Notes: generated from the sequence alone by a model not told the origin. A DNA stretch of 64,000 nt from a virus (IMGVR_UViG_3300036781_000420:1-64000), one strand, 5' to 3'; counted from the first letter of the stretch, positions 1 to 30,201 are shown. A program made the numbers and translations.

Positions 1-432
1 GATCGCGTCATCGACCCTTATACGGCCGATCCGACGCGCAAGGGCGTGCTGGTGCCGCAGCAGGTGATCTTTTGCTCCAAGCCGAACATGGCGCTGGAGC
101 CGGTCAACGACACGGCAAAGGCGATCTTCTCCGCCTATGAGCGGACGATGGCTGGTGGCTCCTCGGTTCAGCCGGGCATTTCGACGCCCGACCCGCTCAA
201 CGACAAACCGCTGTGGATGACGGACAAGGGCCGGCTGTTGTCGACCCCGACCGCCACGGCAATGGAGCATGGGATGGTTTCGGAGCCGGTGCGCGTTACC
301 GCCGATATGGTGCGCGCGCGGCCGGTGCAGGAAATCATCAGCCCTCACGATCCGCGCGCCAGCAAGATTCCGGTGACGGGTACCATTGCTCCGCCCGCCG
401 TGCGCGGCAGCATCGACGCGCGGGTGCGGTGA
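1..432 (+). CDS. hypothetical virion-module protein, 5' end cut by the window edge
   Basis: Frame +1 is open from base 1 to TGA 430-432. The stop overlaps ATG 432 of the next gene (TGATG coupling). Confidence 0.5.
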   Translation, partial: DRVIDPYTADPTRKGVLVPQQVIFCSKPNMALEPVNDTAKAIFSAYERTMAGGSSVQPGISTPDPLNDKPLWMTDKGRLLSTPTATAMEHGMVSEPVRVTADMVRARPVQEIISPHDPRASKIPVTGTIAPPAVRGSIDARVR

Positions 433-2126
433 TGGATAGGGCTGGCCTCGGCGCGATCCTGCGCCACCTCGTACGGCCCGCGCTGGCCGCCCTTCTTCTC
501 GCTGCCGCCGTGTCGCCGGGCGCGGCAATTGCGGCAACGCTCTATATCAGCGAATTCGCCAACGGCGTGTCGCAGGTCGGCTCGACCACGCCGCAGGTTT
601 ATCCGCAGGCGGCAATCACCGACCAGACGGTGGCGCTCAGCGGGGCTTCGGCCCAGTCGGCGGTATTCAATGCCGGCACGCATGCCGTTTCGCTCGTGTG
701 CGATGAAGGCTGCTCGGTGCTGTTCGGCACCAAGTCCGCGACCAACCCGGCCGCGACCACGAGCAATTACCTGCTTCAGCAGGGCGTCCCTTACGAATTC
801 ACCGTGGTGCCAGGCACCAAGCTCGCGGTGATCGCCAATGCTGCCGGAGATACCGGAGGCGGCGGCGGTGGCGGGGGCGGTGCGGTCACCATCGCCGACG
901 GCGCCGACGTTACGCAGGGCGCGATTGCCGATGCCGCCGCGACGGCAGGAGGTACCGGCACGGTATCGGCCAAGCTGCGGACCATCACCGGCCAGCTCGC
1001 GACCGGATCAGCCGGGCTCCTCAAGGCCGAGGATGCGGCGGCGGCCAGCGGGGATGCCGGCGTCATGGCGCTCGGCGTCCGCAACGATACTGGCGCCGAT
1101 GTCACCTCGGCGAATGGCGATTACAGTCAGATGTCGGTCGACTCCGCCGGCAACGAAAAGGTGGTCGGCAATGTTGCCGCTGCTGTTGCCGACGCCGGCA
1201 ACCCGGTGAAAGTCGGCGGCGTGGCGATGTCAACCGCCCCCTCGGCCGCAACGGACGGACAGCGGCAAAATGCATGGATGACGCCGACAGGTGCATTTGT
1301 GGTTGGCGGGATAGGCGCGACACTGGCAGATGGCGCCTCTAATACATCTGTTGCATTTCCAAGGACTAGCAGCGCTTCACCTGTCGGCCTCTGGAATGAC
1401 AATTACGTTTTCAACGGGGCGTCTTGGGATCGCCAGCGCGGCGATGTCAACGGCTCATGGGCGCAGGGTAACGTGGCGGCAGACGCCGTAGACATCGGCA
1501 ACCCAGTAAAAACCGGCTGTTATGCCATGGGAACTGCCCCCAATGCTGTCTCCGATGGGGATCGCCAGAATACATGGTGCAGCACCAACGGCGCCACTGT
1601 GGTCAGCGGCATTGCCACCACTCTGACCGACGGAATCGGTAATACCGGCGTTACCCTTGCTCGCCCCGGTCTGTCATCCGGAACGGGGATGTGGATGTTC
1701 CCGTCCTATTTCAACGGCACAACCTGGGACCGCATGCGCGGCAACGCCGTCGAGGGGCTTGTGGTCAAGCCCTATGCTTTCGCCGCGAGCGCATGGAACT
1801 ATGCAGCGGCCACCGGCGGCATCACCAACACCACGACGGCGGTGACGATCAAAGCCGCCGCCGGTTCGGGGGTCGTCAACTACATCACCTCGCTGTCGCT
1901 CAATTCCTCCGCCGTTGGCACGCCGACCGAATTCGTTATCCGGAAAGGCGCCGGCGGCACCGTGCTGTGGCGCTACGATGTAAGCTCGACCGGGCTGCTG
2001 CAAGGCATCAACATTCAGTTTCCGGTGCCGCTCGCAAGCGACCCGAACGGCCTGCTGGAAATCGCCACCTTGACGGCAACCGTCACGGGAAGCGTCTACT
2101 TCAACGCACAAGGGTATTCCGAATAA
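432..2126 (+). CDS. glycine-rich fibre-like protein with Sec-type signal peptide
   Basis: ATG 432 lies inside listed ORF 213..2126. N-terminus is MDRAGLGAILRHLVRPALAALLLAAAVSPGAAIA/A. It has a G9 run and two ~90-100 aa internal repeats. Confidence 0.7.
   Translation: MDRAGLGAILRHLVRPALAALLLAAAVSPGAAIAATLYISEFANGVSQVGSTTPQVYPQAAITDQTVALSGASAQSAVFNAGTHAVSLVCDEGCSVLFGTKSATNPAATTSNYLLQQGVPYEFTVVPGTKLAVIANAAGDTGGGGGGGGGAVTIADGADVTQGAIADAAATAGGTGTVSAKLRTITGQLATGSAGLLKAEDAAAASGDAGVMALGVRNDTGADVTSANGDYSQMSVDSAGNEKVVGNVAAAVADAGNPVKVGGVAMSTAPSAATDGQRQNAWMTPTGAFVVGGIGATLADGASNTSVAFPRTSSASPVGLWNDNYVFNGASWDRQRGDVNGSWAQGNVAADAVDIGNPVKTGCYAMGTAPNAVSDGDRQNTWCSTNGATVVSGIATTLTDGIGNTGVTLARPGLSSGTGMWMFPSYFNGTTWDRMRGNAVEGLVVKPYAFAASAWNYAAATGGITNTTTAVTIKAAAGSGVVNYITSLSLNSSAVGTPTEFVIRKGAGGTVLWRYDVSSTGLLQGINIQFPVPLASDPNGLLEIATLTATVTGSVYFNAQGYSE
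1196..1750 (+). repeat. in-frame internal tandem duplication (~100 aa unit, diverged)
   Basis: GNPVKVGGVAMSTAPSAATDGQRQNAW...FNGASWDRQRGD is followed by GNPVKTGCYAMGTAPNAVSDGDRQNTW...FNGTTWDRMRGN. Coordinates are approximate. Confidence 0.7.
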
Positions 2127-2127
2127 A

Positions 2128-2388
2128 ATGGCTGTTTTCACGAATCAGGTTTCGGTCGGTGTAGGTCCGACGCCGACGCTGGTCATCGCGGCTCGCACGC
2201 GCACCGCCGTTACGGTGACCAATATGGGAACCACCCCGGTGTTTTTGGGCGACATTTCGGTGACCCTCACCACCGGCCAGTTTCTTGCCGGCGTGGTCGG
2301 CGCGAGCGAAACCTTCCCCTCGCCTGCGGCGCTGTATGGCCTTGTCGCTTCTGGCTCGGCCAACGTCTCCTATGCGGACATCGACTGA
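2128..2388 (+). CDS. hypothetical small beta-rich virion-module protein
   Basis: 86-aa ORF starting 1 nt after the previous stop. Its stop overlaps the next ATG (ATGA-type coupling at 2388). Confidence 0.5.
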   Translation: MAVFTNQVSVGVGPTPTLVIAARTRTAVTVTNMGTTPVFLGDISVTLTTGQFLAGVVGASETFPSPAALYGLVASGSANVSYADID

Positions 2389-2819
2389 TGTCCAGCTTGA
2401 AGGACACTCCTCCCGTCAAAGGCGACACCGGTTCAAAAGGCGACACCGGCTCGCAGGGGCCGAAGGGCGATGCTGGCAATACCGGCAATACCGGGCCGAC
2501 TGGCGCCGCCGGAGCTGCCGGGACCGTGGTCCAGGCGGTGCGGGCACTGACGGATTCCACGGGCCTCTATACGTGGACCTATCCCACCGCTTACGCGAGC
2601 GGCGTGGTCCCCGTCATCCAGGCAACCGCCGAAGGGCCGAACCCGCAGGCCGGCGTGACGGTCAACACGCAACTCGAAGGCGTGCCGACCAATACCGCCT
2701 GCAAAATCCGGGTGACGCGGACGGCGGCAACTACAGTGGCGCTGCTCGGGCTGACGATCTTGAGCCTGCCGGCGGCGATAGCCACGGAAATCCATATCAC
2801 CGCGCAGGCGCCGACCTGA
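2388..2819 (+). CDS. collagen-like (G-X-Y repeat) fibre protein
   Basis: KGDTGSKGDTGSQGPKGDAGNTGNTGPTGAAGAAG gives about 12 uninterrupted G-X-Y triplets near the N-terminus, followed by a globular C-terminal part. Confidence 0.7.
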   Translation: MSSLKDTPPVKGDTGSKGDTGSQGPKGDAGNTGNTGPTGAAGAAGTVVQAVRALTDSTGLYTWTYPTAYASGVVPVIQATAEGPNPQAGVTVNTQLEGVPTNTACKIRVTRTAATTVALLGLTILSLPAAIATEIHITAQAPT

Positions 2820-2875
2820 TATAGCTCGGCCCAGTTGAGTGCCGGGCCGCCTCGTGAAACCTCAAAGGTGCAGAA

Positions 2876-3196
2876 ATGACGACGCAGCCCGGCCAGAAAA
2901 GTTTCAGCCTCGTGAATGGCGGCAAAGCCTATCGCGTGCCGCTCGATAGCGGCGGCGCGCTGATCGGCAGCATGCGCGGCCATGGCGGTACTGTCGTGCT
3001 CAATGGCGCCACGCCGGTCCCCGTGGTCAGCGATGGCGTGACCGCCGACTCCATCATCATCCTGACGTTGAAGACGGTGGGCGGCACGGTGAGCCCGACC
3101 GCGCCGAACGTGCTCACCATTACGCCGGGAACCGGTTTTTCCGTTGCCGGCGTAGCGGGCGATACCAGCACCTATAATTGGGCGCGCCTCGGCTGA
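2876..3196 (+). CDS. hypothetical beta-rich protein
   Basis: 106-aa ORF preceded by AAAGGTGCAGAA. Codon third positions are GC-rich like the neighbouring genes. Confidence 0.5.
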   Translation: MTTQPGQKSFSLVNGGKAYRVPLDSGGALIGSMRGHGGTVVLNGATPVPVVSDGVTADSIIILTLKTVGGTVSPTAPNVLTITPGTGFSVAGVAGDTSTYNWARLG

Positions 3197-3229
3197 GGCC
3201 GACCGCTTTCCCCTCCAAGGAGACACGTC

Positions 3230-3721
3230 ATGAAACTGCATTCGATCATCGGGCTTGCCGCTGCGGGTCTGTTCTTCGCCGGTGCCGGCCTCGCCATCGC
3301 CCAGACGGTTCCGCTCACCCCCGTCACGTCGGTCGGGCCTTCCGATCTGTTCGCCGACGTGGTTGGCGGCTCGCCCTCGGCGCAGAGCAAGTTCGCCACC
3401 GCCGCGCAGATCGCCGGGGTGCCGGGCTACCATAATTTCGGCACCATCTCCGCCGATCCGGCCTATACCGTGCCGAACGGCGTTACCGACCTGTTCGCCC
3501 ATGCCGCCGGCACGCTGACCCTCGCGACCATCACCACCGAGCCGAACCCGGCCGACGGCAAGCGCGAATGCTGGTGGCTCGACGCGGCGACCACGACGCT
3601 GACGTGGACCGCCAATACCGGGCAGACGATCAGCGCCAACGTTCACGCGGCAGGCGTCGCCTTCAACCCGAACTGCATCACCTTCGTGGCGGCGCTGTCG
3701 AGTTGGGTTAGTTCCCCCTGA
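3230..3721 (+). CDS. secreted hypothetical protein (Sec signal peptide)
   Basis: RBS AAGGAGA lies 7 nt upstream. N-terminus is MKLHSIIGLAAAGLFFAGAGLAIA/QTVPLTP. Confidence 0.65.
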   Translation: MKLHSIIGLAAAGLFFAGAGLAIAQTVPLTPVTSVGPSDLFADVVGGSPSAQSKFATAAQIAGVPGYHNFGTISADPAYTVPNGVTDLFAHAAGTLTLATITTEPNPADGKRECWWLDAATTTLTWTANTGQTISANVHAAGVAFNPNCITFVAALSSWVSSP

Positions 3722-3906
3722 TGCCGGCCCGATCCGAAGCACAGCGGCGGCTCATGGAAGCCGCCGCACATACAAAGGGGGGCGCTGGCGGCGTCCCTCA
3801 GAGTGTCGGCAAGGAGTTCGCCAGCGCCGATCCCGGTGGCAAACTGCCGGAGAATATCGGCAAGCGCCGTGACCGGCTCTATACGCATCCCCGCAGCAAG
3901 GATTGA
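3721..3906 (+). CDS. DUF3008-like small basic protein
   Basis: MPARSEAQRRLMEAAAHTKGG...KEFAS resembles the MPAKSKAQQ...AA..K.G pattern of DUF3008. The start is ATGA-coupled to the previous gene. Confidence 0.55.
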   Translation: MPARSEAQRRLMEAAAHTKGGAGGVPQSVGKEFASADPGGKLPENIGKRRDRLYTHPRSKD

Positions 3907-3956
3907 TCGCCATGGCCTCGCCGACCCTGGTGGATATGGCAGGAAGGACGAAGCCG

Positions 3957-4181
3957 ATGGCCGACAAGAAAAAGCACTGGATCAAGTCCGCGACATCGAA
4001 CAGCCATGGCCAGTTCCGCGCCAAGGCGGAGAAGGCAGGCGAAACGACGCGCGCCTTTGCCCATGAACACGAGGGCGATCAGGACAAGACCGGCCAGCAA
4101 TCGCGCCTGGCGCTGGCCCTGATGGGCGCGACGAAGCAGCGCGAACGGCAGAAGCGCCTCTATCCCAAGATGAAGGACTGA
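3957..4181 (+). CDS. small basic hypothetical protein
   Basis: ATG 3957 follows AGGAAGGA and lies within listed ORF 3903..4181, whose own start is TTG. The C-terminus RQKRLYPKMKD echoes the previous gene's RRDRLYTHPRSKD. Confidence 0.5.
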   Translation: MADKKKHWIKSATSNSHGQFRAKAEKAGETTRAFAHEHEGDQDKTGQQSRLALALMGATKQRERQKRLYPKMKD

Positions 4182-4185
4182 TCCG

Positions 4186-4563
4186 ATGGCCGAAGAAAAA
4201 ACCCGCCGCGAGCGCATGTACAACAAGACCAGCGTCGACAAGGCGCCGGAGAAGAAGCCCGACGACGCGCCGGCCGACAAGCCCGAGCATAAAGGCGACG
4301 GCGAGAAGCCCGGCAAGGGCGACAAGCATGCCAAGCACGGCGGCGAACGCAAAGACATGCACAAGCGCCATGAACAGGAACGCCGCGAGGCCCACGGCAA
4401 CCACCGTGAACTGCTGCGCACCATGGCCGAGCGCCACGACAAGGAAATCGCGGCCATGAACGACCGGCAGGACGCCGACATGATGGGCGGTGGCGAGCCG
4501 GAATCGGGCATGGCCGGCGCCGCGCCGGGCCCCGCTGTCGCAACCCCCGCCCCGGAGCAGTAA
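4186..4563 (+). CDS. highly charged K/E/H-rich hypothetical protein
   Basis: 125-aa ORF. The N-terminal RRERMYNKTSVDK repeats the R-x-R-L/M-Y motif of the two upstream genes. Confidence 0.55.
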   Translation: MAEEKTRRERMYNKTSVDKAPEKKPDDAPADKPEHKGDGEKPGKGDKHAKHGGERKDMHKRHEQERREAHGNHRELLRTMAERHDKEIAAMNDRQDADMMGGGEPESGMAGAAPGPAVATPAPEQ

Positions 4564-4566
4564 CCG

Positions 4567-4866
4567 ATGACGCAGATGGCCTCAATGGAACTGGACGACG
4601 ATGCGGCGATGGACGCGCCGCAGCCTATCCCCATGGCGAACAAGCCGAGCTATCCCTATGGCTTGTGCATATGCCTGACGGCTGATGAGGTGGAAAAGCT
4701 CGGGATCGATCCGGGTGACGCCATGGTCGGCGGCATCTTCCACTTCGAGGCGCTGGCCAAGATCACCAGCGTGACGCTCACCGATTCCGAACACGCCGAC
4801 GGCCCGCAATGCCGCATCGAGGCGCAGATCACCGATATGGGCGTTCTCTCGGCCGACGACGACTAA
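4567..4866 (+). CDS. acidic hypothetical protein
   Basis: 99-aa ORF starting 3 nt after the previous stop. Family not recognised. Confidence 0.55.
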   Translation: MTQMASMELDDDAAMDAPQPIPMANKPSYPYGLCICLTADEVEKLGIDPGDAMVGGIFHFEALAKITSVTLTDSEHADGPQCRIEAQITDMGVLSADDD

Positions 4867-4884
4867 ACCGCGCACGAGGTTGAA

Positions 4885-7398
4885 ATGTCGCTTCCCCGCT
4901 GGCTCGCGTTCATCGCGGTGCTCTTTGCCTCGCCAGCGCTGGGGCAGGTTGTGCCCTTGCAGGGCGGCCCCTGGGTTTCCGGTCACGCGCCGATGTATGT
5001 CAACAACGGCAGTGCCCAGCCGGTGCTGCTGGACAGCGGCGGGGCAGGCGGGGGCGGCTCCGGTACCGGCATCAGCGATATGGGCCTCACGGCACGCGGC
5101 CCGGGCGCGGGGCCCTATGCGGGCGCCGGCACCGGGCCGAATGGCGAGAACTGGTGCGATTACGACGCGCCCACGACGAACCCCGGCGGCTACCACTATC
5201 TTTGCCTGTCGCCCAACGCCCTCGGCGGCGGCCTGATCAGCTACGGCGCCAGTGGCGCGGCGAGCACCGACCCGCTCTATATCAGCGTCAACGGCCTGAC
5301 ATTTCCATTGGTGGGCGGTGGCACGGTGACCAGCGTCGGGCTGACCGCACCGGCACAGTTCAGCGTTTCGAACTCCCCCATCACCACGGCAGGCGACCTT
5401 GGGCTGGGCTGGGTTGCGCAGAATGCCAATACAGTGCTGGCCGGCCCCGGCAGTGGCGCCGCCGCAGCGCCGGGCTTTCGGGCGCTGGTTGCCGCCGACC
5501 TGCCGTTTCCCGGCCCTACGGCCATCGGTGGCGTGACCAGCCATGCGGCGGTGACGCATCAATTCCTTACCCAGATCGGCACCAACGGGACAATTTCCGC
5601 AGCGCAGCCGGCAGCCGCCGACCTCAGCAACGGCGTAACGGGCTCCGGCGCGGTGGTGCTGGCGACGGCGCCGACCATTGCCGGGCTGACCGCAACCGGA
5701 TCGCTGACCGCAACGGGGCTGGTGACCAATGCCGACCTGGTGAATGCCGCCACCACGGTCAACGGCCAGACCTGCACGCTGGGCAGCACATGCACGGTGA
5801 CGGCGGCGGCGACGGGGGTGACGATCAGCACCACGGCCATCGGCTCCGGCACATCGGGACGCGTGCTTTACGACAATGCCGGGGTGCTCGGCGAATTGAC
5901 GACCACGGGCAGCGGCAGTGCCGTGCTGGCCAGCAGCCCGAGCCTTGTTACCCCGAATATTGGCGCGGCCACAGGCACCACGCTGACCACCACCACGACG
6001 GTATCGGCCCAGCCGCCGCCATTGCCGGGCGGCCAGAGCGCGGTCAATTATCACCAGATCACCGGCGACAACGTTGCGGCGACCGGGTTCATCCTCGGCA
6101 ATGAAAACCAGTACATCTTCGGCGGCAGTTCGGTGACCGGTGGCCGCATCGCCAATTACGATTACATTGCGAATACGGCGATCACCAACGCCTCCAATAC
6201 CAACCGCAACTATGTCGGCCACGTCGGCGAGGCATATACCAATGTCGGCGACGGCGGCACCGATACGGCGGGCGGCGCCAAGGGAGCGTTCTTCGGCGAA
6301 AACCCGGAAATGTTCGTCGACGCGGGCGCGACCAACCTGCTCAATGCCACGGCAATGGAGGTCGACACCTTCACCGCTGCCGGCTCGACGGTGCGCTATC
6401 TGACCGGCATGCAGATTGCCGGCGCCAACGCGACGCACGGCGTGGAAGTCGATACCGCGCTTGCGATTTACGGCACCACGTCGTCTGGCGGCTTCGGCCC
6501 GCATATCGGCTGGGGCACCGGTATCCTGTTCACCGATATCGGCGGCGTGAGCCCGTTCTATTCCAGCTCGACCATCATCGGTTATCACTGGCAGGGCGCG
6601 ACGCCGACGATCCTGAACGGCATCGATTTCACCGGCTTCACCTTTACCGGCAACGCCTTCCAATCGCCCGGCGTGCTGATTACCGGCAATGGCGGCCTCA
6701 ACCTCACCAACGCCAACGCCGATATGGAATTCGGCAGCACAACGGGAGCCAATACGCCGCTGATCGACTGGCACAGCTCGGGCAACGCTATCGATTACGA
6801 CGCCCGGCTGATCGCCTCCGGCGGCAGTGCCAGCAGCGGCAACGGGCTGTTGCAGGCGCTGGCAAGCGGGTTCTTCGTCAATGCCGGGCTGGCCGACGCC
6901 GAACAGGTCAGCATCCTTGCCGCCGACAATACCGCGCCGACCAACGTCAACACCGCGCAGAGCGTGTTTTCGTCCGGCCAGAGCACATTCACCGCGACGG
7001 CGGCGACCAGCTACCAGTTCGAGGCCGAATACGAAATCGACTCCACCGGCGCCACCAGCAATTCGCTGGGCGTACTGTTCGGCGGCACGGCGACATTCAC
7101 CAGCATCGGCTATGACGCGATTGCCACCAACGGCACCACGTCGACCACGGCCTCCGCAACCTCCGGATCGAGAGGAAGCGCGGCCACGCTGCTGACGGTA
7201 ACTCCGGCGGTAGCGGCGGCGACGCAACGGCTGGTCAAGCTGCGCGGCACCCTTCGCGTCAACGCCGGGGGCACCATTATCCCGGAATTCCAGTATAGTG
7301 CAGCGCCGGGCGCCGCGCCGGTGGTGCGGTCCAATTCGTATTTCCGCTTGTGGCCGATCACCACGAACATCATCACCAAACTCGGCGGCTGGTCGTAA
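4885..7398 (+). CDS. tail-fibre-like protein (837 aa) with Sec-type signal peptide
   Basis: RBS is ACGAGGT. N-terminus is MSLPRWLAFIAVLFASPALG/QVVPLQGGP. The first ~240 aa are paralogous to the 7679 gene. The rest is Gly/Thr/Ala-rich and fibre-like. Confidence 0.75.
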   Translation: MSLPRWLAFIAVLFASPALGQVVPLQGGPWVSGHAPMYVNNGSAQPVLLDSGGAGGGGSGTGISDMGLTARGPGAGPYAGAGTGPNGENWCDYDAPTTNPGGYHYLCLSPNALGGGLISYGASGAASTDPLYISVNGLTFPLVGGGTVTSVGLTAPAQFSVSNSPITTAGDLGLGWVAQNANTVLAGPGSGAAAAPGFRALVAADLPFPGPTAIGGVTSHAAVTHQFLTQIGTNGTISAAQPAAADLSNGVTGSGAVVLATAPTIAGLTATGSLTATGLVTNADLVNAATTVNGQTCTLGSTCTVTAAATGVTISTTAIGSGTSGRVLYDNAGVLGELTTTGSGSAVLASSPSLVTPNIGAATGTTLTTTTTVSAQPPPLPGGQSAVNYHQITGDNVAATGFILGNENQYIFGGSSVTGGRIANYDYIANTAITNASNTNRNYVGHVGEAYTNVGDGGTDTAGGAKGAFFGENPEMFVDAGATNLLNATAMEVDTFTAAGSTVRYLTGMQIAGANATHGVEVDTALAIYGTTSSGGFGPHIGWGTGILFTDIGGVSPFYSSSTIIGYHWQGATPTILNGIDFTGFTFTGNAFQSPGVLITGNGGLNLTNANADMEFGSTTGANTPLIDWHSSGNAIDYDARLIASGGSASSGNGLLQALASGFFVNAGLADAEQVSILAADNTAPTNVNTAQSVFSSGQSTFTATAATSYQFEAEYEIDSTGATSNSLGVLFGGTATFTSIGYDAIATNGTTSTTASATSGSRGSAATLLTVTPAVAAATQRLVKLRGTLRVNAGGTIIPEFQYSAAPGAAPVVRSNSYFRLWPITTNIITKLGGWS

Positions 7399-7412
7399 CC
7401 TCGGAGATTTGC

Positions 7413-7667
7413 ATGCGCCTTCCTGCCGTTCTTGCCTGCCTCGCCCTGTTCGCTACGCCTGCCGTCGCCCAGCAGCAGGCGCCCAGCGCCGCGCAATTGA
7501 CCCGCGCGCTCCAGAATGTCACCGCTCAGCGCGAACAGGCGCTGAATGTCGCGGCGTTCTGCCAGGGCGATGAAGCGGACCTGCAACAGCAACTGGCTGC
7601 CGCCAACGCCCGCAACGCCGAATTGACCAAAGAGCTTGCCGGCCTCAAAGCCGCGCCGACCAAGTAA
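7413..7667 (+). CDS. small secreted coiled-coil protein
   Basis: ATG 7413 follows GGAGA. N-terminus is MRLPAVLACLALFATPAVA/QQQ, followed by a helical Q/A/L-rich segment. Confidence 0.6.
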   Translation: MRLPAVLACLALFATPAVAQQQAPSAAQLTRALQNVTAQREQALNVAAFCQGDEADLQQQLAAANARNAELTKELAGLKAAPTK

Positions 7668-7678
7668 GGAACCGGCAA

Positions 7679-9298
7679 ATGATCCGCCTTCGCCTTCTGC
7701 CTCTACTGCTGCTCGGCCTGCTGGCATTGCCGGCGAGCGCGCAGCAGGTGCCACTTCAATCCGGCCCGGTAACCGCCGGCCATGCCCCGATGTACGTCAA
7801 TTCCGGGAATGGCCAGCCCGTCATTCAGGACAGCGGCCCGGCGGCGGGCGGCCAGACCGGCCTTGGCATGGGAGAGGGGCTGTACATTGCTCGCGGCACC
7901 GGCACACCGCCCTATATCGGACAGGGTACCGGCCCCTCCGGCACCAATTGGTGCGATTATGACGCGCCGATTTCCAATCCCGCCGGCTATCATTTCCTTT
8001 GCCTCAGCGCCAATGCGCAGGGCGGTGGGTTGATGGTCTACGGGGCCGGCGGCATTGCCACGCCGCTGCCGTTGTCGGTGATTATCAACGGCGTGCAATC
8101 GTCATGGGCGACGGTGACCAGCGTCGGCCTGTCGATGCCGGCCGAATTCAGCGTTGCCGGCTCGCCCGTCACGTCTTCCGGTACGCTGGCGGCGACATGG
8201 GCGAGCGAATCGGCCAATCGCGTGCTGGCCTCGCCGAACGGCACCAGCGGCACGCCGGGCTTTCGGGCGCTGGTAAGTGGCGACATGCCGTTGCCGGGTC
8301 CGTCGAGCCTCGGCGCCGTGAACAGCCATGCCGCCGTCACGCACCAGTTCATCACGCAAATCGGCACCGACGGCGCCATTGCGGCGGCACAGCCGGCATT
8401 CACCGACGTTTCCGGCACGGCAACGATTGCGCAGGGCGGCACCGGCCAGACCTCGGCCAACGCGGCGCTCAACGCGCTGCTGCCCTCGCAGACCGGCAAT
8501 GCCGGCAAGGGATTGTTCACCGACGGCACCAACGCGACATGGACGCCGGTTTCGGGCTCCGGAACCGTGACCAGCGTGGCGCTGACAGCCCCCTCCGAAT
8601 TCGCGGTGACGGGCTCGCCTGTGACCGCCTCCGGCACGCTGGCGCTGGCCTGGGCCAATCCGGTAACGGTCGCGCATGGCGGCACCGGGCTCGCCTCCGG
8701 CACCTCTGGCGGTATCCCGTATTTTTCCGGCACCACATCGATCGCATCGAGCGGGGCGCTGACGGCGAGCCATGTGGTGCTGGGCGGCGGCGCTGGCGCT
8801 TCGCCAACCGTGCTGGCCTCCCTCGGCACGACAACGACGCTGCTCCACGGCAATGCCGCCGGCGCCCCGACCTTCGCCGCCGTGGCGCTCGCCACCGATG
8901 TCTCCGGGCAGCTGCCGACAGCCAATGGGGGCACCGGCGCGGCCAACCTGAACGGTATCGTGCAGGCGGGCACGACGAACACGATCACCACCGGCTACAC
9001 GCTGACGCCGTTCAATATCGGCACGGTAACGACCGGCACCACGACGCTGAGCGGCGCCAACGGCAATTACCAGTACATGACCGACAACGGCGCCTCGACA
9101 ATCGCCGCGCCCGCCGCCGATACCGCCATTGACGTGCTAATCACCAACGGCGCCTCGGCGGGGACGTTAACGTTTTCGGGGTTCACGGTCGGGAGCAATA
9201 CCGGCGACACGTTCGACACGGTGAACGGCCACAAATTTCTGCTCAACGTCATTCGAATCAACGGCACGTCAACCTATCTGGTGAAGGCGCTACAGTGA
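7679..9298 (+). CDS. tail-fibre-like protein (539 aa) with Sec-type signal peptide
   Basis: RBS is AAGGAA. N-terminus is MIRLRLLPLLLLGLLALPASA/QQVPLQSGP. It carries fibre motifs IAQGGTGQTSANAALNALLP and VAHGGTGLASG. Confidence 0.75.
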   Translation: MIRLRLLPLLLLGLLALPASAQQVPLQSGPVTAGHAPMYVNSGNGQPVIQDSGPAAGGQTGLGMGEGLYIARGTGTPPYIGQGTGPSGTNWCDYDAPISNPAGYHFLCLSANAQGGGLMVYGAGGIATPLPLSVIINGVQSSWATVTSVGLSMPAEFSVAGSPVTSSGTLAATWASESANRVLASPNGTSGTPGFRALVSGDMPLPGPSSLGAVNSHAAVTHQFITQIGTDGAIAAAQPAFTDVSGTATIAQGGTGQTSANAALNALLPSQTGNAGKGLFTDGTNATWTPVSGSGTVTSVALTAPSEFAVTGSPVTASGTLALAWANPVTVAHGGTGLASGTSGGIPYFSGTTSIASSGALTASHVVLGGGAGASPTVLASLGTTTTLLHGNAAGAPTFAAVALATDVSGQLPTANGGTGAANLNGIVQAGTTNTITTGYTLTPFNIGTVTTGTTTLSGANGNYQYMTDNGASTIAAPAADTAIDVLITNGASAGTLTFSGFTVGSNTGDTFDTVNGHKFLLNVIRINGTSTYLVKALQ

Positions 9299-10056
9299 TG
9301 CGGACCTTCCTCGGCTTCCTGCTCTGGCTCGCCCTTGCCGCCACGGCTCTGGCCACGCCGCCTTCTGTGGTGCAGACCAGCAATGGCGCTGCCTCGACAT
9401 CCTCGACCGTCAATCAGGTCGTCACGCTGCCCTCGACGGTTAACCCCGGCGACCTGCTGGTTGCCGCGCTTTATTTGTTGGGGGCCCCCAACAACCAGTC
9501 AGGGCCGACCGACTGGCCGGCGGGGTGGACGCTTTCCAACGACACCTTCACGGGGGCAAATGAAATCGCTGTTTATTACCGGATCGCCGATGGCAGTGAG
9601 GATGGCGGTTCGGTTGCGGTGACGGCATCCCAGGGTTCGTTTGGCAATTATATCGTCTATCGGATTACCGGGGCCGATCCGTCGGCGATGCCGACGACCC
9701 CCGCGGCACTACTCAGCGTCGGGTCGTCCAGCACTATCCCGTTCCCGTCCGTAACCCCGGCATGGGCGGCGGCTGATGACCTGTTCATCGCGTTTTTCGG
9801 CAGCTTCGGCGCCTCTCCAACATCGGTAACCTCGTGGCCCACGAACTATACCGATAACCAGATTTTCTATCGCAATAGCGGCAGTAATGCGTACATCACC
9901 GGGGGCGCAACGCGTGGCGCGACGGTTCCAACTGGCACCGAAACGCCGGGGAATCTCACCTTGAACGCCGTCACTACGCTGAGTCGGCTAAGCGTCACCA
10001 TCGCGGTCAAGCCGCAGATCGATTACACCTTCAATCTGCCGATGCTGGGGATGTAG
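9295..10056 (+). CDS. secreted hypothetical beta-rich protein
   Basis: The start is GTGATG-coupled. N-terminus is MMRTFLGFLLWLALAATALA/TPPSV. Confidence 0.6.
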   Translation: MMRTFLGFLLWLALAATALATPPSVVQTSNGAASTSSTVNQVVTLPSTVNPGDLLVAALYLLGAPNNQSGPTDWPAGWTLSNDTFTGANEIAVYYRIADGSEDGGSVAVTASQGSFGNYIVYRITGADPSAMPTTPAALLSVGSSSTIPFPSVTPAWAAADDLFIAFFGSFGASPTSVTSWPTNYTDNQIFYRNSGSNAYITGGATRGATVPTGTETPGNLTLNAVTTLSRLSVTIAVKPQIDYTFNLPMLGM

Positions 10057-10057: not shown

Positions 10058-10627
10058 ATGCCGGTCACCTCTACGGATATCGTCAACGAGGCAATCCAGC
10101 TCATCGGCGACAATCAGCCGCCGGTGACGGGCACCGCGCCCGATTTCGACACGTCCACGGCCGGCAAGGCAGCGGCGCAGGTCTACCTGCCGACCATCGC
10201 CGCCGTGATGCGGCAGTTCTCGTGGGATTTCTCCCGCAGCACCGCCGCGCTCGTACTTTCCGGCAATACCGCGCCTTATCCGTGGACGCTGGAATATCAA
10301 TATCCGGCCGGCGCCATCGAAGTATGGGAATTGTCGCCCCTTACCGAGGACGACCCCAACGATCCGCTGCCAGTCAATTTCGTTGTCGCCAACGCCATTG
10401 TAAACGGAGTGCAGCAGCGCGTCATCCAAACCAGCCTTGTCGATGCGCAGGCGATATTCGGCAACAACCCGAGCCCCGACACATGGGACGCGCTATTCCA
10501 CCAGGCGGCGGTACGGCTGCTCGCGAGCACGCTGGCCATGGCTATCGGCGGCAAGCCCGACGTTGCCCAAAGCATGCTATCTTCGGGTGCGGCCTTTGAA
10601 GGCTTGGGCGAGACGCGGAGAAACTGA
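10058..10627 (+). CDS. T7 gp11-like tail tubular protein A / adaptor, paralogue 1
   Basis: IVNEAIQLIGDNQPP...MRQFSWDFS parallels T7 gp11 VNDILASIGEPPV...QSRGWTFN. It also has PWTLEYQYP. Confidence 0.6.
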   Translation: MPVTSTDIVNEAIQLIGDNQPPVTGTAPDFDTSTAGKAAAQVYLPTIAAVMRQFSWDFSRSTAALVLSGNTAPYPWTLEYQYPAGAIEVWELSPLTEDDPNDPLPVNFVVANAIVNGVQQRVIQTSLVDAQAIFGNNPSPDTWDALFHQAAVRLLASTLAMAIGGKPDVAQSMLSSGAAFEGLGETRRN

Positions 10628-11253
10628 TGCCGATCACCAGCGTAAAGAATCCGGCCGATGCGGTGAATGTCGCGCTCGTCCGCATCGGCTGGAAGGGTGG
10701 CGAAATCGGCAACCTCTATGATGGCTCGGAAGCCGCCATGGTGGCGCTCAACATCTACGGCCAGACCCGCGATGAGCTGCTGCGCTCGCACGCATGGGAT
10801 TTCGCCCAGCGCACCATCAGCCTGTCGTTGTTGAAAGCGGCGCCGGTCGGCGGCTACGTGCCGGGCTTTACGCCATGGGACCCCACCACCGACCCGCCTA
10901 TCCCGTGGTTGTTCGAATACGCCTATCCGGAAGACTGCATCAAAATCCGCGCGGTCAAGCCGGTGCCGATCTTCCTGCCGAATTTCGACCCGTTGCCCAA
11001 TGTCTTCTCTACCGCCAACGACAACGACTTTACCCCGGCGCGTGAAGTGATCCTCACCAATGTTGAAAATTCGCTGTGCATCTACACCGCCCGGGTGACC
11101 GACCCGACGACATGGACCGCCGATTTCACGAATTCGTTCATCGACGCGCTGGGCGAATCGCTGGCGCCAGCCCTGACCTCGCTCGATGCGGCCAAGCTTG
11201 AGGCGGCAGAGGGCGGCGCCAGCGTGACAATGGCCAAGATGGAGCAGGGTTGA
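10627..11253 (+). CDS. T7 gp11-like tail tubular protein A / adaptor, paralogue 2
   Basis: AVNVALVRIGW...LLRSHAWDFAQRT...PWLFEYAYPEDCIKIR. The start is ATGA-coupled. Confidence 0.6.
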   Translation: MPITSVKNPADAVNVALVRIGWKGGEIGNLYDGSEAAMVALNIYGQTRDELLRSHAWDFAQRTISLSLLKAAPVGGYVPGFTPWDPTTDPPIPWLFEYAYPEDCIKIRAVKPVPIFLPNFDPLPNVFSTANDNDFTPAREVILTNVENSLCIYTARVTDPTTWTADFTNSFIDALGESLAPALTSLDAAKLEAAEGGASVTMAKMEQG

Positions 11254-17210: not shown

Positions 17211-17213
17211 GCC

Positions 17214-25900: not shown

Positions 25901-26440
25901 TCGTTCGTGCCGTTCTCTGGGCTCATGGGGCAGGCGACGCGCTCCACCGACCCCTATACGCGGCAGGCGCGCACGGTCATCGACACGATCAAGCAGAAAA
26001 TCCCCGGTCTGTCGGAAACCCTGATGCCGCGCCGCGATGTATGGGGCAACGAAATCCCGGCAGGGACGGCGCTGGGGCCATCGTTCCTTTCGGCGATCTA
26101 TACGCAGCAGGTGAGCCATGATCCGGTCAACCAGGCGCTGCTGAGCGCCGGCTATTGGCCCGGGCCGCCGGACAGGAAGATTCGCGGCGTGCTGCTCACC
26201 GATGAACAGTACGACCAATATTCGCAATATGCCGGTCGCATGGCCAAGTCGCGTCTCGATACGATGGTGCGTTCTCCGGCATGGGCCTCGTGGCCACCGG
26301 AGGTGCGGCACGAAGTGGTCAAGGAAACCTTCGCGCAATCGCGTGAGACGGCACGCGGCGCCATTATGGCGAAATGGCCCGACATCGTGGTAAAGGCGGT
26401 GCAGCAGAAGCTGGCGCCGCTCAAGGGGGCAAGCGAATGA
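19913..26440 (+). CDS. giant polyvalent internal virion / ejection protein (2175 aa)
   Basis: The start is ATGA-coupled. It has a glycine-zipper hydrophobic block (GGSIGAAAGALFGGIGAVPGGIVGSIIGAVVGGVAGSVV). It has a PARP-like YHGSPH...GHGLYFAG...NYVIYDD motif set (22304-23020) and HETGH (23135-23149). The C-terminal half is long and helical. Confidence 0.8.
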   Translation: MADANNPFEAIFNDDANGTPGSAITAPFISSQPSAPAPSAAPTEPPGANPFETIFAADESAQEAQAESGPSPGAGFRSTERVVIPAMVGMAAAGAGAETGGSIGAAAGALFGGIGAVPGGIVGSIIGAVVGGVAGSVVTDKAQEFAASPLPDSWKDVLGGTEEQQQRDIKYHPTETFIGGMVPYMLTMRPGGFGASSLPQNATSLQKIASSPVTSHLFGGAVMGGMELGNQVAAGQAPDWRNVAIATGVGVIFNKPNRVGQRLNNIGEAAAARVGARINFGEPRTTPDNAAAPAAEAASDITVAQAGDANVMGPGITEDVFMGSHEPSPEAAMNNRNAARNETAVLAPQADAVADVHATARRLEPETFAEYDALDQQRTDLRTHIAQLANPVDEDIAAATARRDAAQAQLDEHLAARGGYAAGPAARRLRAQVRDAQGDVDDMTQRREQFDAGQGRDTPEMTALREQLMATDIAMRDLAPQVSSAYRRAAEHGGSEIIEPEAPATAPAQPAPPDEVRTPGEQEPTPGGPVTASVEEQGAEIAQDVARQLIAAGRSPAEAEASGQLIASHYRTRAARFGGALGTPLELYRAQAPAIRGVGAAARAIEPAQTEGLPRTLVPDEPSENQTELFQRQIGPVPAERKAAHLAAAKDFEDKLRAEFGDDFTIETEQASGGSTYVTVRQRLKNKNGSYKKARGEAPVGRTGFKLRIADHGSYYGSTISVDPASGNSIEQALALFRYVAKRSDEAPAFNVSNIDPGSGETKIAPATYERDSETNPIKYRRDDLRPVPERTLYQPAYHGSPHIFDRFSTEKIGTGEGAQAYGHGLYFAGKKQVADWYREQLAGRQQVKFDGKYLRELSQDHILDLARRAGVENASASDVRDVLAVARDSVLGSDDARSDLREYAKIERLNASEASDESIKLDHARHANIAEAFAASDLIKNEKPGRLYHVDVPEPHELMDWDKPLSEQPEGVREKLAKAGEFADKPLLPTDTGAQIYNKMGSPQQASEALKWAGIPGHQYIGHESQSTNYVIYDDSRVPITNYEQGKRGSITFAAGRKPIIKLFADANASTFIHETGHQWLEEMLRDASHAAAPDAVKADTATVRKWLGMTEDQASPVTRQHEKFARGFEQYMREGVAPSAGLARVFAQFKSWLSSIYASIKGLGTPINEDIRSVFDRLIAEEPSRTVVAPERATPESPVDIHEREAATVEPHEAEPAMDRIIAERDRYLAEQPPEVLNEITAAETEQQAADAAAAADAGTEGGASEPGPAEVGAAGGEPGVEPAGGAGGGEHGEVVGGGNEARPAGPGLAGERGPADAGLRGERSEPAGAARANPLNPSPSALLGAAESPFLDKAGNIRVENLTTSAEVAQAIHDAADTNNGFIDQRRELTDGEVLDLADALGMDVAQLSKRKLGEAFNAEQIVAARKLLIQSATRVSELMKAAAIGSDQDVLAYAEARDRHVMIQGQVAGITAEAGRALRAFRSLAGQETATVIDQFLRTATGKTLFQLREEAKLGAKLDTPAKVSKMLRDAQKRDFGRMILEYWINGLVSGPRTQVTNAIGNTLMSLQSAGPETAMAALIGKVRSAAGREGTRVRMGEVGAQLRAAGQSLPVATKAALDAIRTGRGIALPGEEISALPYQPGSELAHTAFLDETMTADRIMPELFGTVRGLTDGLVAIGKLAAGGGDAQAPLLHLRFSPLGAIPDIAIRGTTVVPLGTTLRAPTRMLAAGDSFFRAANYSMAKARISYRQAAEEGLTGTDLHARIGDLYQNPSSEMMELSRSNASELTFMANRSEFVTTLGRLSNLNIIGLPLLKFIAPFINTPSNIIEQAAMHRTPFGLVSPEIRADLAGKNGNIAQDTATAKMLLGSAYAISFGGLAARGLLSGSGPADPEQTALWMLAGNQPHSARIGDMWYDLRALGPVGMLAGISADMLDVAHAAETGDVAAAGAAVLHAFMQNIFDASFMTGPADLIQALEDHGRYGQPYLRNFAASFVPFSGLMGQATRSTDPYTRQARTVIDTIKQKIPGLSETLMPRRDVWGNEIPAGTALGPSFLSAIYTQQVSHDPVNQALLSAGYWPGPPDRKIRGVLLTDEQYDQYSQYAGRMAKSRLDTMVRSPAWASWPPEVRHEVVKETFAQSRETARGAIMAKWPDIVVKAVQQKLAPLKGASE

Positions 26441-27255
26441 TCATGGCATCCGTACCGGCAAGCGTCCGGCCGCTTCTCGATCTGATCCGCTCCGCCGAGG
26501 CTGGCCCCACCGACCAGTACAACGTGATCTTCGCCCACCACGAGCGCACCATAGCCAAGAAAATCACCGCCATGACGCTCGCCGAATTGCAGGCCAATCA
26601 GGCGCTGTGGGCAAAGCAGTGGCCGAGTACCGCAGCCGGCGGCTACCAGATCATCCAAAGCACGCTCAAGGGCCTGATGAGCAAGACCGAGATCGCGGGC
26701 TCGGCGCTGTTCACCCCGGCGCTGCAAGACGCGCTCGCCTTTCAACTGCTGCTCGGTCGCGGCTGGGCGAATTTCATCGCGGGCACTTTGTCGACCATCG
26801 ATTTCGGCAAGGCGCTCGCGCAGGAATGGGCCTCGTTCCCGGTCCTGTCGGCCACGAAGGGCGCCCACGGCTCTGTCGCTCGCGGCGTGAGCTATTACGC
26901 AGGCGATTCGCTCAATGCCGCACAACTGGCGCCGGAGCGCGTCGAAGCGGTATTGAAGCAATGTCGAATTCCAGCCACAGTCCCGCCGTCGACGCCGGCC
27001 CCGCCGGTTTCGCCCCCGTCAACCCTGAAGGACATTCAGATGAACCTCTCCCTGCTGACACTGCTGATTTCCTACCTGCCGCTGCTGCCCTATTTGCAGG
27101 CCGATGTGATGACCGAAGTGAAGGTGCTCACCGGCAGTTCCGACGGCGAGGCCAAGGCTCGCCAGACCTTGGCCGTGCTCAAGGATGTGATCGCCCAGAT
27201 CGAGGCGGTTCTTGACGACAAGGCGATCCCGCCGGCCACCGCGCCCGGCGCCTGA
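26437..27255 (+). CDS. lambda-R-type lytic transglycosylase endolysin (GH104-like) with a C-terminal hydrophobic extension
   Basis: LLDLIRSAEAG..YNVIF...STAAGGYQIIQSTL...FTPALQDALAFQLL...EWASFP parallels lambda R FLDMLAWSEGT..YDVIVGG...GAGRYQLLSRWW...SPKSQDAVALQQI...IWASLP. ATGA at 26437. Confidence 0.75.
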   Translation: MIMASVPASVRPLLDLIRSAEAGPTDQYNVIFAHHERTIAKKITAMTLAELQANQALWAKQWPSTAAGGYQIIQSTLKGLMSKTEIAGSALFTPALQDALAFQLLLGRGWANFIAGTLSTIDFGKALAQEWASFPVLSATKGAHGSVARGVSYYAGDSLNAAQLAPERVEAVLKQCRIPATVPPSTPAPPVSPPSTLKDIQMNLSLLTLLISYLPLLPYLQADVMTEVKVLTGSSDGEAKARQTLAVLKDVIAQIEAVLDDKAIPPATAPGA

Positions 27256-27325
27256 CGGGATTGATCGTTCCGGGTCGGGGCATACCGCTCCGGCCTCGTT
27301 TCCTGCGGTGGGGGCCGCAACGCAA

Positions 27326-27589: not shown

Positions 27590-27601
27590 GGACTATCTCT
27601 C

Positions 27602-28434: not shown

Positions 28435-28459
28435 GCAGCGTGACCGGCGGCGACATTGA
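28331..28459 (+). CDS. 42-aa single-pass membrane peptide
   Basis: Not in the ORF track because it is under 60 aa. GGGGAG RBS lies 9 nt upstream. Sequence is MPSQVAEILAFIGLGAGFVLLVFLYSRKSAELKDKQRDRRRH, that is, a TM segment plus a basic tail. Confidence 0.35.
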   Translation: MPSQVAEILAFIGLGAGFVLLVFLYSRKSAELKDKQRDRRRH

Positions 28460-30028: not shown

Positions 30029-30201
30029 ATCGGTATCCTTTCGAATGATCAGTTGAAGGGCGGCATAACTCAGGTCGATTTTGCGCTCTAACCGCACGAA
30101 ATCGGCGTAACTCGCAAAGAGGGGCATTCCGGCCTCGCGATTGCTGGCGCGATCTACAATGCAGCGCGGCCCGCGAAAGTTCAATGACAGACGGCGGAGG
30201 C

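Follow-up and report, generated by a model that had tools for sequence, protein, structure and literature searches.

Sec-type signal peptides on tail fibre-like proteins of an uncultured podovirus family and a possible periplasmic step in virion assembly

Six proteins encoded in the late morphogenetic operon of a podovirus, two of them large tail fibre-like proteins, carry N-termini that, judged from sequence patterns and their conservation, are very probably real Sec-type export signals cleaved by signal peptidase I. Because tailed phages assemble their particles in the cytoplasm, export signals on fibre-like proteins are unexpected; the leader proteins therefore either undergo maturation in the periplasm or have their function outside the virion. 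We agree with the first-pass annotation of this DNA that such leaders are at odds with standard virion biology, and the comparison of homologues indicates that canonical Sec signals on fibre-like proteins of this operon are evolutionarily maintained. The boldest reading considered here, to which we give a probability of roughly 0.4, is that in a large uncultured podovirus family fibres and spike are secreted, processed and oxidatively folded, and mounted on the particle only at the holin breach, i.e., that assembly takes place in two compartments.

The window, i.e., the whole stretch of 64,000 nt that was analysed, comes from an epsilon15/BPP-1-like podovirus, a member of a family of short-tailed phages with hosts among soil and water Proteobacteria. 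It carries the genes of a lytic head-and-tail phage, namely terminase, portal, HK97-type capsid, endolysin and internal ejection proteins. All features described here are located on the plus strand. The leaders lie inside a tightly packed late operon, where genes of the leader block overlap or are separated by gaps of 1-56 nt. A promoter/terminator scan of the block found no plus-strand promoter-like site and no intergenic terminator, and the GC content of the leader genes (0.65-0.68) is like that of the neighbour genes in this Ala/Leu-rich genome of 65% G+C. Several genes of the region have no leader: a collagen-repeat mini-fibre (2388-2819), a K1-lyase_C-like protein of 106 residues (2876-3196), three small, very basic proteins that are conserved in relatives (3721-4563) and a Gp10-like protein resembling the epsilon15 staple (4567-4866). 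Directly 3' of the fibre genes follow, likewise without leader, three paralogous tail-tubular-A/adaptor genes (10058-12146) and tail tubular B (12159-16172), matched by phrog_394 and phrog_376. The endolysin (26437..27255, phrog_90) is located directly 3' of the internal virion protein genes, and the lysis genes (26437-29414) lie away from the six leader proteins. The placement of the block between capsid and tail-tube genes, given in the first-pass annotation, does not hold physically in the window, which is a circular permutation and thus separates the major capsid gene (62536-63585) and the start of the Bbp16-like cement protein gene (63612 to the window end, annotated up to 63998) from the leader block. 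In approximately 80 related loci it is correct: both genes are located directly upstream, and capsid, cement, block, tube A and tube B follow one another without interruption.

The six N-terminal sequences were all recovered from the translation at their annotated positions. The start annotated at 9295 is a GTG; the likelier start is the ATG at 9298, one codon downstream, because it overlaps the TGA of the preceding gene. Five of the six starts had been credited with their own ribosome-binding site. SD-like motifs are indeed present at 3230 (AAGGAGA), 4885 (GAGG), 7413 (GGAG) and 7679 (AAGGAA), and the fifth (GAAGG) precedes 9298. The start at 432 overlaps the upstream stop as described (GTGATG), and at 4885 and 3230 the start codon is the first available one, 6-11 codons past the upstream stop. 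Each of the six leaders has R/K within the first 2-15 residues, five reach a hydropathy of 2.4-3.1 in their best 9-residue segment, and the AxA-type sites are confirmed as AIA/A, AIA/Q, ALG/Q, AVA/Q, ASA/Q and ALA/T. The common mature end Q-x-V-P-L is also borne out after the predicted sites of 3230 (QTVPL), 4885 (QVVPL) and 7679 (QQVPL). A heuristic scan found no lipobox ([LVI][ASTVI][GAS]C) in any of the six window proteins. The leaders also differ from SAR domains in that the cleavage site is kept and only that of 3230 is Gly/Ala-rich, the others being Leu-rich.

Leaders were called with a home-made heuristic that combines n-, h- and c-region with the (-3,-1) rule. It flags five of the six window leaders; the sole reason for missing 432 is its n-region of 15 residues. 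Across all ORFs of the window it accepts 43 of 2102 start codons (2%), mostly in non-coding frames, and among six classes of control genes in the related loci it fires on 1 of approximately 435 (tube A 0/209, tube B 0/35, capsid 0/40, scaffold 0/35, Gp10-like 0/70, Bbp16-like 1/46). Five to six leader-positive proteins among 17 adjacent genes are therefore far above chance. The 2% background is what could be held in favour of a chance or ORF-calling artefact in an Ala/Leu-rich, G+C-rich genome. Against it stand the SD motifs, the near absence of leaders from other structural genes, and the persistence of the leader across hundreds of clusters that share <50% identity and across the approximately 80 syntenic loci, and we regard this explanation as effectively refuted.

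The fibre-like framing of the block needs correcting in that only two of the six proteins are large fibres. The 837-residue fibre (4885..7398; phrog_25788 tail fibre, E 8e-13) and the 539-residue fibre (7679..9298) start with leaders of residues 1-20 (4885-4944) and 1-21 (7679-7741), respectively. These are followed by a common mature N-terminal domain of 117 residues (residues 21-137, 4945-5295, and residues 22-138, 7742-8092) and then by fibre repeats, which in the 539-residue protein are of the GGTG..ALNALLP type and match tail fibre genes of cyanophages and jumbo phages. The longer fibre has the Cys pairs C91/C107 and C297/C303, and C92 and C108 of the shorter one are invariant. The N-terminal domain (N-domain) defines a family of 786 representative clusters. 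Its columns show a mean identity of 68%, compared with only 11% in the full-length alignment, and members range from 168 to 1599 residues. Among 69 members, the C-terminal modules include pectate-lyase-like (5), Peptidase_S74 (4) and beta-helix (3) domains, as in receptor-binding proteins. The N-domain has no annotated relative, and none is detectable in cultured phages or the PDB. A tblastn search with both fibres, the 564- and 163-residue proteins described below and protein P0035 against 50,697 phage records found no cultured relative of the leader-bearing parts; the phiRSL1 match lies in the repeat region of an internal segment and not in the N-domain. PHROGs and Pfam gave no match for 432, 3230, 7679 and 9298 and only a sub-threshold one for 7413, and a PDB sequence search with the 539-residue fibre, the 163-residue protein and a leaderless ISxLP-type fibre returned none. 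The AF2 model of the N-terminal domain was poor, with a pLDDT of 64 (20-sequence alignment), and Foldseek against the PDB gave nothing below E 0.7.

A homologue search for conservation of the leader, a check proposed with the original claim, found it near-universal in the N-domain and 163-residue families. Among the best 150 of the 786 representatives, 130 are SPI-like, 9 have a lipobox (e.g., LAAC/SSQAPAQSVPL) and 11 were typed as having none; in most of these 11 the same hydrophobic leader can be recognised after an N-terminus that was called too long or truncated. In the related loci the heuristic scores 79 of 91 N-domain fibres as positive. Of 74 distinct N-domain matches, 60 pass the strict test and 11 more have a leader on inspection; in the other three the upstream stretch is non-leader or too short for judging. 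The typical leader of the best 150 has approximately 22 residues, with R/K, a hydrophobic core of 9-11 residues and an AxA-like end. The profile (n = 142) places R/K at -18/-17, a mean hydropathy of 2.5-3.0 from -15 to -8, P/S/G at -6 to -4, A at -3 (88%), F/L/W/H at -2 and A/G at -1 (94%), and only 2.8% of leaders have a charge inside the core. Pairwise identity is 24% in the leader and 62% in the first 18 mature residues. On these alignments, the leader evolves exactly as a signal peptide is expected to, its sequence drifting while physico-chemical pattern and cleavage site are kept. The Cys pair motif CxWNNT..DCG was found in leader-bearing proteins only (30 out of 30), a correlation that is only suggestive, as the sample holds few leaderless proteins with the motif. 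Neighbouring genes tend toward the same leader status.

Of the other four proteins, the one at 3230..3721, with 163 residues, a leader of residues 1-24 (3230-3301) and the conserved pair C114/C149, is knob/spike-like. Its leader is called in 43 of 44 syntenic homologues by the heuristic, and MKK.., a hydrophobic core and AxA/Q recur in each of the 68 database homologues that were aligned. The AF2 model (pLDDT 87) suggests a fold like that of known virion spikes, the best Foldseek matches being the Pa223 capsid spike, the N-terminal region of CBA120 TSP4 and T4 baseplate chains. The match to Pa223 gp52 (PDB 9ny6; E 1.3e-3, probability 1.0, TM 0.42) is a moderate similarity between model and structure with no sequence homology. 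Gp52 is a trimeric appendage of 295 residues per chain with a short N-terminal attachment segment, a triple beta-helix and a distal knob; its model starts from residue 2 and no signal peptide is reported (bioRxiv 10.1101/2025.06.11.659172), whereas the 163-residue protein has a leader.

The 564-residue protein at 432..2126 has a leader of residues 1-34 (432-533), a predicted mature end ATLYISEF, a poly-Gly linker followed by two tandem repeats of approximately 100 residues, and the Cys pairs C90/C94 and C363/C383. By the heuristic, 4 of 18 family members carry a leader: long homologues (341-672 aa) have it, while short ones of approximately 100 aa lack it; their first residues, M-ATLYISEF, begin exactly where cleavage is predicted, and a stop codon closely precedes them. 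The protein at 9298..10056 (252 residues; leader residues 1-19, 9298-9354; mature end TPPSVVQTS) is translationally coupled to the fibre gene at 7679. Its family was not found in the related loci, and 17 of its 20 homologues are leaderless and start with M-AFPTVQS beside the predicted cleavage site; one homologue, P0349, retains the leader end as ..NAEA/AFPTVAAT. In both families leader-bearing homologues are thus the minority. The protein at 7413..7667 (84 residues; leader residues 1-19, 7413-7469) has a Gln/Ala-rich mature part that looks coiled-coil; with no homologue in the approximately 80 related loci and no significant family match, it is an accessory gene.

Several observations point to a role of the fibres in the virion. 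The synteny is fixed: major capsid protein, cement and, further downstream, the 163-residue protein, the three basic proteins, the Gp10-like protein, one or two copies of the fibre, three to five tube A genes and tube B. The gene that follows the fibre is tube A or another fibre in 82 of 95 cases, and the order Gp10-like, fibre, tube A occurs in 82-83 of 95. Fibre and 163-residue genes are core genes, the former in the only fibre slot; there is no other fibre gene, and in the window the internal proteins are followed by the endolysin, in the position that T7-, BPP-1- and Jess A-like phages reserve for the tail fibre gene. An additional N-domain fibre copy, with leader, occupies this canonical slot after the internal proteins in one genome. 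Homology to an annotated fibre (4885), a conserved anchor with variable C-terminal modules and the location in the morphogenesis module all speak for tail fibres.

Known podovirus fibres and tailspikes (T7 gp17, P22, epsilon15, CBA120 TSPs) likewise combine a conserved N-terminal domain with swappable C-terminal repeats and depolymerase or Peptidase_S74 modules, and their genes likewise neighbour those for tail adaptor and nozzle within the late operon. These known proteins lack a signal peptide and are assembled in the cytoplasm, whereas the leader is essentially universal in the present N-domain family; a preprint states for the P22 tailspike that it is without Sec signal, the usual expectation. 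Virion proteins with cleavable Sec signals are found in filamentous phages (Ff pIII and pVIII), and pIII is disulfide-bonded in the periplasm; these phages assemble at the envelope and are extruded without lysis, while the present phage is lytic with head and tail. SAR endolysins and o-spanin lipoproteins share late, Sec-dependent export and an action coupled to holin triggering, but the six proteins show no lysin or spanin features and have a conserved cleavage site instead of a releasable Gly/Ala-rich anchor. PblA and PblB of the Streptococcus mitis phage SM1 are tail fibre-like proteins that end on the bacterial surface. They lack a signal peptide and get there by holin/lysin-mediated release in a Gram-positive host, unlike the leader-bearing proteins described here.

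In the pathway that we propose, the leader proteins would be produced together with the other products of the late morphogenetic operon and would pass through SecYEG. Cleavage after AxA would yield mature fibres with an N-terminal Gln, probably as pyroglutamate. Folding and trimerisation would take place in the periplasm, where the conserved Cys pairs could be oxidised; in principle these pairs could bind metal instead of forming disulfides. The virion appendages would comprise the two tail fibres with their family-specific anchor domain, the spike/knob protein and partners. Docking onto fibre-less particles, the most speculative step, may occur upon opening of the inner membrane by the holin or in the newly formed lysate; that P22 tailspikes can be added to heads in vitro provides a model. 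We know of no tailed phage that receives virion parts from the periplasm, and our literature search found no published account of Sec signals on tail fibres or of periplasm-derived virion parts of tailed phages. For the whole chain, from export and processing to attachment once lysis breaches the inner membrane, we consider the odds to be about even.

The idea that the leader is an uncleaved N-terminal anchor is disfavoured, as is its wider form, in which the hydrophobic N-terminus either remains as a structural element for anchoring or assembly or is cut off by a protease of the phage, during the usual cytoplasmic fibre assembly. It would leave standard virion biology intact, and AF2 shows the leader as a helix, though it does so for any signal peptide. 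A partner-docking element should be conserved, whereas the leader is far less so than the adjacent mature part, and the conserved positions are those that signal peptidase I reads (-3, -1 and the helix breakers from -6 to -4). Homologues without a leader have their N-terminus at or next to the predicted site, which argues for cleavage; independent lipobox replacements exist; and SRP/Sec would capture cores that are as hydrophobic and Leu-rich as LLPLLLLGLLAL. We therefore hold this explanation to be improbable. Even less credit is given to two isoforms per gene, with an internal start just past the cleavage site yielding a cytoplasmic virion form and the full-length product an exported envelope form. 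There is a GTG at residue 23 of the 4885 protein and at residue 24 of the 7679 protein, start-like codons occur at +3 to +5 in both window fibres, and TTG is somewhat enriched at the conserved Leu (17/64 vs 15% background). Such starts are not conserved: ATG, GTG and TTG are all missing from +1 to +8 in 40 of the 74 distinct N-domain genes, the 3230 family has no internal start before residue 44, and the shorter form would lose the invariant Gln(+1).

A more serious competitor, though one we hold to be less likely than not to apply, is that the leader proteins are exported and never enter the virion, their place of action being the envelope of the producing cell, in or on which they would work as infection ends. 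Their target might be the phage's own receptor, a polysaccharide or a protein, to be bound, masked or cleaved either from the periplasm or by lipoproteins of the outer membrane. Progeny would then not be lost on debris and late superinfection would be blocked, as with T5 Llp or Cor; alternatively, they may be free adhesins or depolymerases simply released at lysis. Exported proteins encoded beside tail-fibre genes are known from T5 (Llp), T1/phi80/N15 (Cor) and lambda (Lom and Bor), and they share with the present proteins a Sec or lipoprotein signal, the fibre/receptor-binding region and a receptor-tied function. They are small, non-fibre and accessory, and Lom and Bor are transcribed independently in lysogens, whereas the present proteins are large fibre-like core genes co-transcribed with virion genes and without moron signature. 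Lysogenic conversion, which had also been put forward, is disfavoured accordingly by promoter/terminator scan, GC content and synteny: the genes are core, positionally fixed and translationally coupled. The core status applies to the fibre and 163-residue genes; 7413 is accessory, and family 9298 was not found in the related loci. The real Sec signals, the depolymerase-type C-terminal domains of some N-domain members and the lipobox variants fit an envelope role; the approximately 6% of N-domain relatives predicted to be outer-membrane lipoproteins would suit a membrane tether better than virion docking. Families 432 and 9298 work with or without leader, so the place of folding is not critical there. 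In the unrelated myovirus contig L086, two signal peptide-bearing fibre-like genes and a 44-residue lipoprotein come after a leaderless candidate fibre, a layout that recalls receptor-blocking genes beside receptor-binding genes. At least one myovirus lineage seems to have evolved a similar arrangement on its own. On the other side, the N-domain fibre belongs to the core genes, keeps a fixed position between capsid-decoration and tail adaptor genes and is the only large fibre candidate in these genomes. The N-domain is seen only in phages with this tail type (approximately 80 loci), the usual signature of tail docking. Late, operon-coupled expression leaves little time for exclusion, and the fold of the 163-residue protein is virion spike-like. 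Taken against a lysis-time role outside the virion, periplasmic fibre maturation is rated somewhat higher.

Tailed-phage assembly is taught as purely cytoplasmic, and receptor-binding proteins are the ones most used for host-range prediction and engineering. If fibres of a whole family pass through Sec, lysis and the last assembly step would be linked, the fibres could rely on Dsb and Sec functions of the host for folding, intracellular fibre-less particles would be non-infectious by design, and such fibres would have to be directed to the periplasm when expressed recombinantly. If the proteins never enter the virion, they would form a new class of late, fibre-derived envelope effectors, and the real receptor-binding protein of the virion would be a different protein. 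A prophage carried by the sequenced isolate Rhizobium sp. BK313 could offer a way to test this, provided that the strain is obtainable and the prophage inducible. Either way, a 'tail fibre' annotation that ignores the leader misses the biology of these proteins.

The metagenomic contig comprises 64,784 bases, 64,000 of which lie in the window, has approximately 64% G+C and encodes a podovirus. Genes were located for the large terminase (55852-57315), the portal (58364-60178), an HK97-type capsid protein (62536-63585) and a Bbp16-like cement protein (from 63612). The tail is represented by three paralogous tail-tubular-A/adaptor genes in tandem (10058-12146) and by a tail tubular B of 1337 residues (12159-16172), for which phrog_394 and phrog_376 are cited. 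These are followed by internal virion proteins including a transglycosylase (16175-26440), an endolysin (26437-27255) and small membrane proteins. The capsid protein shares ~41% identity with its counterparts in BcepC6B, Ab31, Caulobacter Rauchvirus phages and epsilon15-like phages. In relatives, the capsid gene, the cement gene, the block of leader-bearing proteins, tube A and tube B are contiguous in this order, of which the window is a circular permutation. Its end (63612-64000) cuts the cement gene and its start (1-432) lies inside the gene that follows cement in relatives, and thus the contig is probably a complete, circularly permuted genome.

Several further genes were noted. Three tube A paralogues in the window, and three to five in relatives, suggest stacked adaptor rings, which could give appendages several docking sites. 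Tail tubular B is roughly double the size of its cultured relatives; it carries an E1_FCCH-like insert as well as an Ig-like region (629-715) with a possible receptor-binding role of its own. Just past the lysis genes, the minus strand encodes a leaderless protein of 220 residues that ends in an IPT/TIG (Ig-like) domain (29465-30127). A protein with HTH_3 and Peptidase_M78 (ImmA/IrrE-like) domains (52993-54183) hints at a temperate lifestyle, which is in agreement with a relative inserted into the chromosome of Rhizobium sp. BK313.

The first-pass annotation had read leaders, i.e., Sec-type signal peptides, at six N-termini, and all six read exactly so in the sequence. Cleavage is predicted at residues 34/35 (432), 24/25 (3230), 20/21 (4885), 19/20 (7413), 21/22 (7679) and 19/20 (9298). 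One start had to be moved: 9295 is a GTG, and the ATG at 9298, overlapping the upstream TGA, is the better start. Shine-Dalgarno-like motifs precede five of the starts, each of which had been credited with its own ribosome binding site, and the overlap of 432 with the upstream stop codon was confirmed. Packing of the block is tight, its genes overlapping or lying 1-56 nt apart; neither a sigma-70-like site on the plus strand of the block nor a terminator-like hairpin between its genes was found. Signal peptides were called by a home-made heuristic on n-, h- and c-regions and the (-3,-1) residues, on genes from our own caller. It flags five of the six leaders; the exception is 432, whose n-region of 15 residues is the sole reason for the miss. 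Positives amount to 43 of 2102 starts when all start codons in all ORFs of the window are scored, and to one of ~435 real structural genes of related phages. All leader statistics depend on which start codons were chosen, in public gene calls or by us. The cluster of leaders is not due to chance, a reading to which we assign practically no weight. In the early/regulatory region, a 139-residue protein without family match (52526-52945) adds a seventh signal peptide, also a clean one, MRHIPTALALLALLAAPAFA/GSET.

A domain of 117 residues is common to the two large fibres, which start at 4885 and 7679. Its first residue is the predicted mature Gln (consensus QxxxLQGGPxTxGHAPMY...C.YD.P...YH.LC, both Cys, C92 and C108 in 7679, invariant); its structure model is poor. 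A profile of this mature N-domain alone retrieved 786 clusters at E<=1e-3, and 454 at E<=1e-30, from 1.84 billion representatives. Among the best 150 of the 786, the domain begins at residue 19-30 in nearly every case; 130 score as having a leader of the signal peptidase I type and 9 carry a lipobox, e.g., LAAC|SSQAPAQSVPL. Of the 11 negatives, most have this hydrophobic leader as well, preceded by an N-terminus that was called too long or truncated. Aligned leaders (n=142) have the profile of a textbook signal peptide: R/K at -18/-17, a mean hydropathy of 2.5-3.0 from -15 to -8, Pro/Ser/Gly at -6 to -4, Ala at -3 (88%), a bulky residue at -2 and Ala/Gly at -1 (94%), with a charged core in 2.8%. 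Pairwise identity is 24% for the leaders, mostly shared composition, versus 62% for the first 18 mature residues; the leader thus evolves like a signal peptide and unlike a structural helix that docks to a conserved partner. The conserved Leu at +5 is encoded by TTG in 17 of 64 genes against a background of 15%, a mild enrichment (4945-4960 and 7742-7760 in the window, and related loci); no conserved internal start accompanying it was found in the N-domain genes. In the BK313 prophage (NZ_JACHZQ010000001.1, ~2,182,458-2,202,811), the fibre reads MLRLAAAILAMVAFPCFALA/QQAILQGGPW and the 163-residue protein ..ATAAVA/QTISVPLLA.

This latter protein, starting at 3230 in the window, is a core gene with a leader in 43 of 44 syntenic and 68 of 68 aligned database homologues; AxA/Q is kept in all, and the family has a conserved Cys pair (C114/C149). 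No relatives of 7413 were detectable. The 432 family has leader-bearing long forms (341-672 residues) and short forms (~100 residues); the latter have a stop codon shortly before their start, M-ATLYISEF, which coincides exactly with the predicted cleavage site. Among homologues of 9298, 17 of 20 are leaderless and start with M-AFPTVQS beside the predicted site, and another, leader-bearing member reads ..NAEA/AFPTVAAT. The leader is thus a module that can be added before an otherwise unchanged mature N-terminus. Removal of Met from the ATLYISEF forms would yield the same end as signal peptidase cleavage of the long forms, and we take these starts and the common end as strong indirect evidence for leader cleavage. 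Adjacent partner genes tend to match in leader status: both bear leaders in the window and in two related loci (L001, L088), and both lack them in L089; L087, where a leaderless homologue adjoins a leader-bearing gene, is a partial exception. Closely spaced Cys pairs occur in the mature parts of four of the six proteins, and the pair in CxWNNT..DCG was seen only in leader-bearing proteins (30 of 30, with few leaderless motif carriers sampled). Both patterns would fit oxidative folding, with metal binding as an alternative.

Gene order speaks for a role in the virion. The ~80 related loci, which stem from IMG/VR, from two MAGs (Aliidongia, Salinisphaerales) and from the isolate Rhizobium sp. 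BK313 (a 2.56-Mb contig), have a fixed order: capsid, cement, further genes, the 163-residue protein, three small basic proteins, a Gp10-like protein, one or two N-domain fibres, three to five tube A copies, tube B and internal proteins. The gene after the fibre is tube A or another fibre in 82 of 95 cases, and a search anchored on tube A gave the same picture. One genome has an extra N-domain fibre, also leader-bearing, past the last internal protein, which is the canonical T7-type fibre slot; Jess A has a tail protein there, whereas the window phage has its endolysin. No other fibre gene was found in the window. C-terminal modules of the family (pectate-lyase-like, beta-helix, Peptidase_S74 chaperone) are typical of receptor-binding proteins. 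The 163-residue protein gave a good model (pLDDT 87), and each of its top PDB hits belongs to a phage appendage, namely the Pa223 capsid spike gp52 (E 1.3e-3), CBA120 TSP4 (N-terminal region) and baseplate chains. The three small, highly basic Lys/Arg/Glu-rich proteins (3721-4563), kept in nearly all relatives between the 163-residue and Gp10-like genes, are possibly packaged or ejected. A leaderless 143-residue protein with collagen G-x-y repeats (2388-2819) matches many tail-fibre PHROGs and could be a small fibre made in the cytoplasm.

Judged by comparison with homologues, the six N-termini are very probably cleavable Sec signals; every functional step past this identity is what we infer. 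The proteins would be co-expressed late with the virion operon, exported through SecYEG, cleaved after AxA, and folded and trimerised in the periplasm with disulfides. In the most speculative step, they would dock onto fibre-less particles upon opening of the inner membrane by holin, or in the fresh lysate. Such docking is physically plausible, given that heads can receive podovirus tailspikes in vitro, as established for P22. We give the whole chain a probability of about 0.5.

Its main rival, in which the proteins stay off the virion and serve as late envelope effectors or free factors, is a serious if less probable candidate. Approximately 6% of the fibre family are predicted to be lipoproteins of the outer membrane, which counts against a virion role. 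So does an unrelated E217-like myovirus (L086, 10001-13861, 54.5% G+C), in which two leader-bearing fibre-like genes (557 and 683 residues) and a 44-residue lipoprotein come directly after the baseplate wedge genes, behind a leaderless candidate fibre. This layout resembles receptor-blocking genes beside receptor-binding genes. Fibre-like genes with a leader are thus not confined to this podovirus family. No cultured relative of the leader-bearing proteins was found among 50,697 phage records (tblastn of the two fibres and the 564- and 163-residue proteins). That the leader stays on as an N-terminal anchor is unlikely, as a docking helix would not drift (24%) beside a conserved mature end (62%). 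Two isoforms made via an internal start are rated lower still, since start-like codons at +1 to +8 are missing from 40 of 74 genes.

The block proteins share architecture and gene position with tail fibres and break the tacit rule that these carry no export signal, an expectation made explicit for the P22 tailspike in one preprint; a full-text search of the published literature found no description of Sec signals on tail fibres. Llp, Cor, Lom and Bor are likewise exported products of the fibre region, but the block proteins are large, fibre-like, core and operon-coupled. Sec signals are also carried by the coat proteins of filamentous phages, whereas here the putative virion proteins belong to a lytic head-tail virus. 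If docking at lysis holds true, these phages would be assembled by a categorically new route.
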